Shown here: piece by piece, positions 36,325-36,550 of the stretch | Layout of the letters: every line of letters starts with the position of its first letter | Position numbering within the stretch: position 1 is the first letter of the stretch | Assembly (NCBI RefSeq): GCF_003334335.1 | Contig: NZ_QOWQ01000034.1 | Direction: 5' to 3' (one strand) | Length of the DNA stretch: 50,400 nucleotides | Source: Escherichia coli | Lineage (GTDB): Bacteria; Pseudomonadota; Gammaproteobacteria; Enterobacterales; Enterobacteriaceae | Translations under genes and position numbers: made by a program | Notes under the pieces: generated by a model | What the model saw: only the letters and a program-made list of their open reading frames with translations | The model's database searches: none | Told to the model about the DNA's origin: nothing

Positions 36325-36550
36325 CCGGGTGCCGGACGCCGGATGCGGCGTACATACGGGCACAAACATAAAAATATGTGCGAACTCGTAGGCCTGATAA
36401 GACGCGACAGCGTCGCATCAGGCACCGTGCACCGAACGCCGGATGCGGCGTAAACGCCTTATCCGGCCTACAAACGGGCGCAAACATAAAAATATGCGCG
36501 GACTCGTAGGCCTGATAAGACGCGCCAGCGTCGCATCAGGCACCGAACGT
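36325..36550. repeat. BIME: two tandem REP-containing units between lfgJ and lfgK
   Basis: Two copies of CGGATGCGGCG...CAAACATAAAAATATG(T/C)GCG...CTCGTAGGCCTGATAAGACGCG(A/C)CAGCGTCGCATCAGGCACCG. Confidence 0.8.

Follow-up and report, generated by a model that had tools for sequence, protein, structure and literature searches.

Why do the spacers of a flagellar gene cluster carry repetitive extragenic palindromic (REP) elements at junction after junction, and do these elements serve the genes between which they lie? The question is raised by the Flag-2 (lateral flagella) cluster in a stretch of 50,400 nucleotides from Escherichia coli (contig NZ_QOWQ01000034.1, assembly GCF_003334335.1), which is called the window here.

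The locus and the identity of its palindromes

The window belongs to the E. coli chromosome and is a 100% match to strain FORC_081 over positions 30000-44000; the gene layout was taken from the RefSeq annotation of that strain. By this annotation, a prophage (1-12872) adjoins tRNA-Thr, which is followed by the genes from proBA to dinB, and the Flag-2 cluster begins at lafU (24230) and runs to the end of the window, continuing outside it to lfhA. An Rfam IS009 match of 202 bits was seen within the prophage (6331-6530, minus strand). The gene rayT, encoding the REP-associated tyrosine transposase, is positioned about 13.7 kb beyond the window end (FORC_081 2443109-2443606), directly after lfhA, which makes Flag-2 the immediate neighbour of the REPtron. 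It is the single such gene of E. coli and is intact in the present strain. In the paper on the REPtron this flank goes by 'fhiA', and flagella are not mentioned at all. This part of Flag-2 is present in about 1040-1250 of the 5426 complete E. coli genomes. In the present strain, the export ATPase gene lfiI (49522-50400 onward) is interrupted by an internal stop and annotated as a pseudogene, which probably leaves the Flag-2 of the strain without function.

The REPs were called by two detectors, a blastn-short scan of the window with Y, Z1 and Z2 consensus sequences and an independent search that used foot (arm) pairing and the GTAG tail only. Both found REPs at exactly the seven junctions named in a preliminary description of this DNA and nowhere else in the window, and reading of the spacers agreed. 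Classification against the consensus, set beforehand as a check, gave Y, Z1, Z2 or variants of them with GTAG tails at all seven junctions. The same description had spoken of nearly every operon junction, which is an overstatement, since the spacers between lafU and dinB, upstream of lafA, at lfgB-lfgA, between lfgA and lfgM and between lfgN and the hypothetical gene hold no REP when read.

Against the 29-36-nt consensus, nine units have matches of 96.6-100% (blastn-short), and a GTAG/CTAC tail with paired 7-nt feet is present in 12 of 12 complete units, which are imperfect palindromes (the Z1 units here are 29 nt long). The consensus was checked against the published Y and Z2 strings (PMC2817692 Table 1), the K-12 REPtron units and K-12 REP325; the K-12 RefSeq feature tables list no REPs. 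The Y and Z2 of the window agree with the E. coli strings of that table, which gives both as E. coli-specific REP types, and with the K-12 REPtron units. By reading, the Y units have GTAG and the GC/TT stem mismatch, and their recognition and cleavage by RayT are predicted. All units studied are extragenic and lie within spacers; six of the nine adjacent stop codons are at most 15 nt from a REP, and eight of nine are at 6-16 nt. Each of the 5426 complete E. coli genomes has matches to the REP sequences, the median being at least 32-39 places, although only some 1040-1250 of the genomes carry Flag-2, which argues that they are not chance palindromes. Consensus identity and genome-wide dispersal rule out chance palindromes and plain terminators alike.

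Architecture of the junction elements and nearby signals

Between lfgJ and lfgK lies a tandem two-unit Y/Z2 BIME (36338-36541, minus strand). The preliminary description had recognised such an element at 36325-36550, and the repeat search confirmed it as a 92-nt direct repeat in two copies, spaced by 118 nt and 90% identical. In mRNA sense, the array consists of Z2 (36541-36506), a 34-nt linker (36505-36472), an inverted Y (36471-36438), a 14-nt head linker (36437-36424), a further Z2 (36423-36388), a 36-nt linker (36387-36352) and a 14-nt Y remnant (36351-36338). The two Z2 units match the consensus at 36/36 and 35/36 and the Y at 33/34 (blastn-short), and in the distal Y an 18-nt deletion has taken away one half. 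With TRF, no array was reported in 30000-49500, because there are just two units, one of which has the deletion. The GTTCGG motif recurs at both ends of the BIME. The Rfam model RF02564 (naRNA4), whose basis is a Y/Z2 BIME unit, matches at full length at 36391-36468 (minus strand) with 83.9 bits against a gathering threshold of 59.5, and the mRNA strand of the region folds at -117 kcal/mol (z = -5.2). Transcription of the array would be plausible, as it is located downstream of lfgJ in the sense orientation.

In this array, the tail-to-tail linker is 34 nt long; it was found in 640 of 5426 genomes at 1-7 places each. Three matches were inspected (the best, a middle one and the weakest), and all lie in Flag-2 between lfgJ and lfgK or between lfgD and lfgE; elsewhere, about 370 kb of sampled sequence (about 350 kb from the present genome and 20 kb from K-12) did not contain the linker. 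Judged by these sequences, one BIME lineage appears to be private to Flag-2 and to have moved between its junctions.

Downstream of the array by 22 nt is a sigma-28 (LafS)-type motif for lfgKL, TTTAAGAA-N15-GCCGCTTTTAA (36284-36315, minus strand). The pattern CTTAAGAA..GCCGCTCTTAA is conserved in the lfgJ-lfgK spacers of about two dozen Enterobacterales loci, REPs present or not, and similar motifs lie upstream of lafA and lfgM. This site is probably a lateral sigma-28-type promoter of lfgKL.

The element after lafA is a BIME-1 (30531-30628, minus strand) that starts 10 nt past the lafA stop codon. In mRNA sense it consists of Y (30628-30595, 34/34 to consensus), a 35-nt L linker (30594-30560) and an inverted Z1 (30559-30531, 28/29). 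It stands at this junction as a single copy, and the combination of Y, inverse Z1 and a long conserved L linker is that of the BIME-1 class. The Rfam family ES036/CssrF matches 30552-30594, that is, the L linker and 8 nt of Z1, with 44.6 bits (gathering threshold 37.6). The L linker has a motif that by reading is one mismatch from the IHF consensus and that we take to be a predicted IHF site. The layout Y-L-Z1 (98-99 nt) with the AAATTCAATATATTGCA linker core recurs at seven other loci of the same genome. In E. coli EC1515, RefSeq has a 91-aa 'hypothetical protein' across the BIME-1 and terminator of this junction (6899-7174, local numbering), which is most likely a spurious ORF on repeat DNA.

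The intrinsic terminator of lafA (30476-30507, minus strand), a 10-bp stem followed by a T run, is downstream of the BIME-1 and is kept in all genera as AACACCGCC..GGCGGTGTTG. It is followed by a sigma-54-type motif, TGGCAC-N5-TTGC (30380-30396, minus strand), at the lafB operon; TTGGCAYG..TTGC upstream of lafB is conserved in all genera, and the motif would be the promoter of the lafB operon. The REPs had been described as placed inside polycistronic units. Two of the junctions, lafA-lafB and lfgJ-lfgK, are operon ends with conserved promoter motifs downstream. Further motifs of both types were observed: TGGCAC-N5-TTGC upstream of lfgB (43308-43322, minus strand), CGGCAC-N5-TTGC upstream of the pair formed by a hypothetical gene and the glycosyltransferase gene (44970-44986, plus strand) and a sigma-28-type motif within the lfgA-lfgM spacer. 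Together, the sigma-54-type and sigma-28-type motifs suggest a candidate promoter map of Flag-2.

Five junctions remain. Between the convergent regulator and 325-aa genes is a hybrid REP (32897-32933, plus strand) whose foot is Y-type and whose top is Z2-like; the two flanking stop codons are 15 nt and 6 nt away from it. A variant REP with a GTCGGAT foot (GTCGGATGCGACGCTGACGCGTCTTATCCGACCTAC) starts 8 nt past the lfgG stop (38676-38832, minus strand). It contains a 121-nt insertion (38692-38812) made up of a 20-nt duplication and a long imperfect hairpin with REP-like ends; in this hairpin, the ends GTAGGCACGATAAGCG..CGCGCATCGGGC enclose a 51-nt core. The 97-nt core of the insertion is single-copy, with 205 of 5426 genomes carrying it; in strains that lack the insertion the lfgG-lfgH spacer measures 82 nt, and in Escherichia sp. 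MOD1-EC7003 the 121-nt unit is tripled in tandem. Between lfgF and lfgG, 9 nt past the lfgF stop, stands a single Y, inverted in mRNA sense (39662-39695, plus strand, 34/34). The lfgD-lfgE element (41691-41771, minus strand) consists of Z1, an 18-nt linker and an inverted Y and begins 16 nt past the lfgD stop. Finally, Z1, a 16-nt linker and an inverted Y lie between the convergent glycosyltransferase and adenylyltransferase genes (48581-48659, plus strand), 11 nt and 27 nt from their respective stop codons.

A second dispersed repeat of a non-REP family was seen between the hypothetical (lysine-methylase-like) gene and the glycosyltransferase gene (45947-46124), where two inverted GC-rich palindromes, CCCTCTCCC..GGGAGAGGG, are presumably box C-like. 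Of 5426 E. coli genomes, 5400 have this repeat, with a median of 16 places in each, and strains have 0, 2 or 3 copies in this spacer. In some Escherichia and Pseudocitrobacter loci it stands in for REPs at lfgJ-lfgK and lfgG-lfgH, and it also occurs at the putA-lafU boundary of Pseudocitrobacter vendiensis.

Variation, distribution and density

Five E. coli strains were compared at each junction, and two further strains were added for lfgJ-lfgK. REP content varies between strains at every junction. The lfgJ-lfgK spacer has 0, 1, 2, 3, 4 or 6 units across strains and lineages: it is REP-less in strain E15 (91 nt), has one Z2-S-Y unit in two strains and four units in EC1515, and has six in a cryptic Escherichia lineage, with the terminal Y truncated as in the window. 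Strain Z142-1, which is 99.9% identical over 14 kb, has three units against the two of the window and differs by exactly one 118-nt unit. The lfgG-lfgF spacer has 0, 1 or 3 REPs by strain (one to three where present). Its REP-less form, 26 nt long and found in 114 genomes, resembles the Citrobacter spacer and is therefore probably the ancestral empty site. By strain, lfgD-lfgE holds 1, 2, 4 or 7 REPs, and lafA-lafB holds a BIME-1, a Y/Z2 array or a lone Y; a Y directly past the lafA stop is present in all Escherichia-type loci examined except that of P. vendiensis. The hybrid REP at the regulator was found in five E. coli strains, its CTAC tail being lost or altered in three. In E. coli RMDEC465 (NZ_CM177019.1 2127444-2130486), a copy of IS621, a REP-targeting element of the IS110 family, lies between the lfgD-lfgE Z1 and the tail of the lfgJ-lfgK Z2, and the genes from lfgE to lfgJ are deleted. 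As this IS bridges the REPs of two junctions with the loss of the intervening genes, the junction REPs act as IS targets and deletion end-points.

To place the elements among other species, species-representative genomes were scanned with LfgI, which gave Flag-2 loci from about 30 Enterobacterales. In E. whittamii and in two cryptic Escherichia lineages, E. coli-type REPs occupy these junctions too, so the oldest insertions predate the split of the Escherichia species. Pseudocitrobacter also has them, as does one 'Citrobacter' MAG whose proteins are E. coli-like. LfgI is 91-94% identical to that of the window in Citrobacter werkmanii, youngae, braakii, gillenii and amalonaticus, and no E. coli-type REPs were found at the orthologous junctions of these species or of Phytobacter, Enterobacter, Leminorella and Rahnella. 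In the REP-less genera, the spacers are 12-30 nt between lfgF and lfgG and 69-104 nt between lfgJ and lfgK, and both are unstructured (z about 0). The suggestion that the locus is long-resident in an E. coli-like genome is well supported by the E. coli-specific Y and Z2 types, the junctions shared across Escherichia and the absence from other genera.

The Flag-2 DNA of P. vendiensis (CALSBS010000002.1) is 93-95% identical to that of the window and has Y, Z1 and Z2 REPs. Its proteins are 88-100% identical, except for the regulator (61%), and the cluster sits by putA, not dinB. This combination suggests, and is most simply explained by, a recent transfer out of Escherichia. The Pseudocitrobacter LafF protein is identical to LafF of many E. 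coli.

One structure behaves differently. Among 16 non-Escherichia Enterobacterales loci whose spacers measure at least 50 nt, 15 have a GC-rich hairpin after lfgG (z -2.1 to -6.1), the sequences being unrelated; in several Citrobacter species it is a REP of the Citrobacter/Salmonella type. Only this hairpin is conserved in position across genera, and the site may be under selection for structure. Within the cluster, such selection is most likely at two places, the post-lfgG hairpin and the Y after lafA. In the Flag-1 cluster of K-12, an inverted Y REP was observed between flgF and flgG (8559-8729, local numbering) and a small hairpin after flgG, between flgG and flgH (9513-9564, local numbering).

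For a baseline of density, the detector based on foot pairing and GTAG was applied to six 50-kb stretches of the same genome, placed arbitrarily. These 300 kb gave 17 REP loci with 31 REPs, which agrees with published K-12 figures of 355 loci and 584 REPs (PMC4550694; PMC3333891). Flag-2 from lafU to lfhA (37.9 kb) has 8 loci with 14 REPs, seven of the loci in the window and one at lafK-lfiM. REP loci are about 3.7-fold denser in Flag-2 than in the baseline (binomial P = 0.005, in a comparison chosen post hoc), an excess that a purely neutral model does not explain, the post hoc choice applying here as well. It is barely credible that the excess comes from the adjacency of rayT through a transposase preference for nearby DNA. 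The gene does follow lfhA directly, and a private BIME lineage appears to have moved inside Flag-2, but REP loci do not thin out with distance: of the eight, seven lie in the half of the cluster away from rayT and one in the half close to it. Neither flank rises above baseline, in the present strain or in K-12, and REP number is reported to differ little between strains with and without rayT (PMC3333891).

Function and comparison with known systems

The observed identity, density, polymorphism and phylogenetic distribution of these elements are best explained if they are ordinary RayT-type REP/BIMEs with generic side effects (probability about 0.78), the involvement of RayT and all effects on RNA and DNA being presumed. 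They would be short non-autonomous palindromes such as the tyrosine transposase RayT (TnpA-REP) recognises, cuts and recombines. After the split from the Citrobacter-type cluster, they would have spread into the Escherichia-type Flag-2, settling in its inter-cistronic and 3' untranslated spacers, and within E. coli they would still be gained, lost, amplified and shifted between junctions. As they would be transcribed as stable hairpins 6-16 nt past stop codons, generic REP effects are probable: a barrier to 3'-to-5' exonucleases, partial attenuation of transcription and, where under 16 nt separate the REP and the stop codon, dampened translation termination. At the DNA level, IHF could bind the BIME-1, and gyrase or HU the Y/Z2 array. 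Such effects would be by-products or at most strain-level tuning, not a conserved stoichiometry device.

Protection of upstream mRNA and Rho-dependent attenuation are established effects of REP/BIMEs at other loci, and REPs stabilise upstream mRNA in other operons. As relayed by PMC12306157, Liang et al. (2015) reported that about half of E. coli REPs lie at most 15 nt from a stop codon and that REPs in that range lower translation of the gene upstream. IHF sites are found in BIME-1 linkers and gyrase cleaves Y/Z2 BIMEs (PMC3333891), and REP325/naRNA4 has been implicated in HU-dependent condensation (PMC4550694).

The preliminary description had instead suggested that the REPs have a role in setting subunit stoichiometry. 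By that account, they would be selected hairpins in polycistronic mRNA whose stabilisation or differential decay fixes the ratios of flagellar subunits. This is unlikely, and the comparative evidence goes against it. The hairpins are indeed very stable on the mRNA strand and stand just past stop codons, and the stabilising effect of REPs is established elsewhere; however, the presence, number and type of REPs vary between strains at every junction, REP-less alleles included, and apart from lfgG-lfgH the orthologous operons of other genera do without them. The conserved position of the post-lfgG hairpin and the inverted Y in K-12 flgF-flgG favour selection, but a REP after the low-copy lfgD and before the high-copy hook gene lfgE is the reverse of what is needed, as upstream stabilisation would favour lfgBCD over lfgE. 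Moreover, lafA-lafB and lfgJ-lfgK are transcript ends before conserved promoter motifs, and the cluster of the present strain is already damaged (lfiI).

A role in DNA itself is very unlikely. The array and the BIME-1 would then be gyrase, HU or IHF sites or an attenuating insulator, parting early (class 2-like) from late (sigma-28-type) transcription and tuned by copy number. The array does end close upstream of the conserved sigma-28-type motif, it is built like REP325/naRNA4 with its implication in condensation (PMC4550694), and the gyrase and IHF properties of the two BIME classes fit (PMC3333891); yet REP-less alleles exist at lfgJ-lfgK, and some Escherichia and Pseudocitrobacter loci have an unrelated GC-rich repeat there. 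There is some small chance that two sites, the post-lfgG stem-loop and the lfgJ-lfgK array, are functional and the rest are passengers. The stem-loop may be a conserved intra-operon signal of lateral flgB-type operons, an attenuator or decay barrier, in a slot that each host may fill with its own palindrome (an E. coli REP, a Citrobacter-type REP or an unrelated GC hairpin). The copy-variable array upstream of the lfgKL promoter may be a tunable insulator against read-through from the early operon into the hook-filament junction genes; if this is true, it would cause heritable strain-to-strain variation in lateral-flagella output.

On the preferred reading, as ordinary REP/BIMEs, the Flag-2 elements reveal no new mechanism. 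That REP/BIMEs exist, are polymorphic and are linked to rayT is textbook knowledge (PMC3333891). No paper on REPs in Flag-2 was found among the papers searched; the survey of Flag-2 mentions neither palindromes nor intergenic repeats (PMC6993521), and the sole paper found with both 'Flag-2' and 'repetitive extragenic palindromic' is on Bradyrhizobium. What these data therefore add is detail: the instances themselves, how dense they are, the private linker lineage and the cross-genus hairpin. The REPs serve as a dating marker, placing the Escherichia-type Flag-2 in an E. coli-like genome prior to the separation of E. coli, E. whittamii and the cryptic clades, and, since they travel with the cluster as in P. 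vendiensis, as a tracing marker. The junction BIMEs are also agents of variation and decay, as in the unit changes between near-identical strains and the IS621-linked loss of lfgE to lfgJ. For annotation, the repeats account for the long Flag-2 spacers and for spurious small ORFs called over them.

Compared with the Y, Z1 and Z2 families of E. coli, the units are typical in being dispersed, extragenic, imperfect palindromes of 29-36 nt with a GTAG/CTAC tail and, in Y, the GC/TT stem mismatch. The Y/Z2 hybrid between the regulator and 325-aa genes departs from these families, as does the post-lfgG unit with its GTCGGAT foot and locus-specific 121-nt insertion. In the REPtron, where rayT is flanked by BIMEs between yafL and fhiA/lfhA, Y and Z2 are one base each from those of the window, whereas the REPs studied lie outside it, 14-32 kb from rayT. 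Flag-1 of K-12 is occupied at the same two junctions as Flag-2, with unrelated flanks.

The lafA-lafB element resembles BIME-1 (RIP/RIB: Y, L linker with an IHF site, Z1) in its 98-nt layout and L core, and differs in that the IHF site here is predicted and that other strains have a Y/Z2 array or lone Y at this place. The lfgD-lfgE element shares the pair of Z1 and Y with BIME-1, but its linker is short (18 nt), which makes it an atypical BIME. The lfgJ-lfgK array is like BIME-2, represented by K-12 REP325, the source of naRNA4, in the alternating tandem Z2 and Y units, the head-to-head linker of 13-14 nt, the strain-variable copy number and the score above threshold with the naRNA4 model. It is unlike REP325 in its tail-to-tail linker, 34 nt with a 118-nt period against 17 nt; the 13-nt S linker is found in other Flag-2 alleles, and the window allele has 34-36 nt. 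Under the strict definition, which calls for a short S linker (PMC3333891), the window allele is thus an atypical BIME of Y/Z2 composition.
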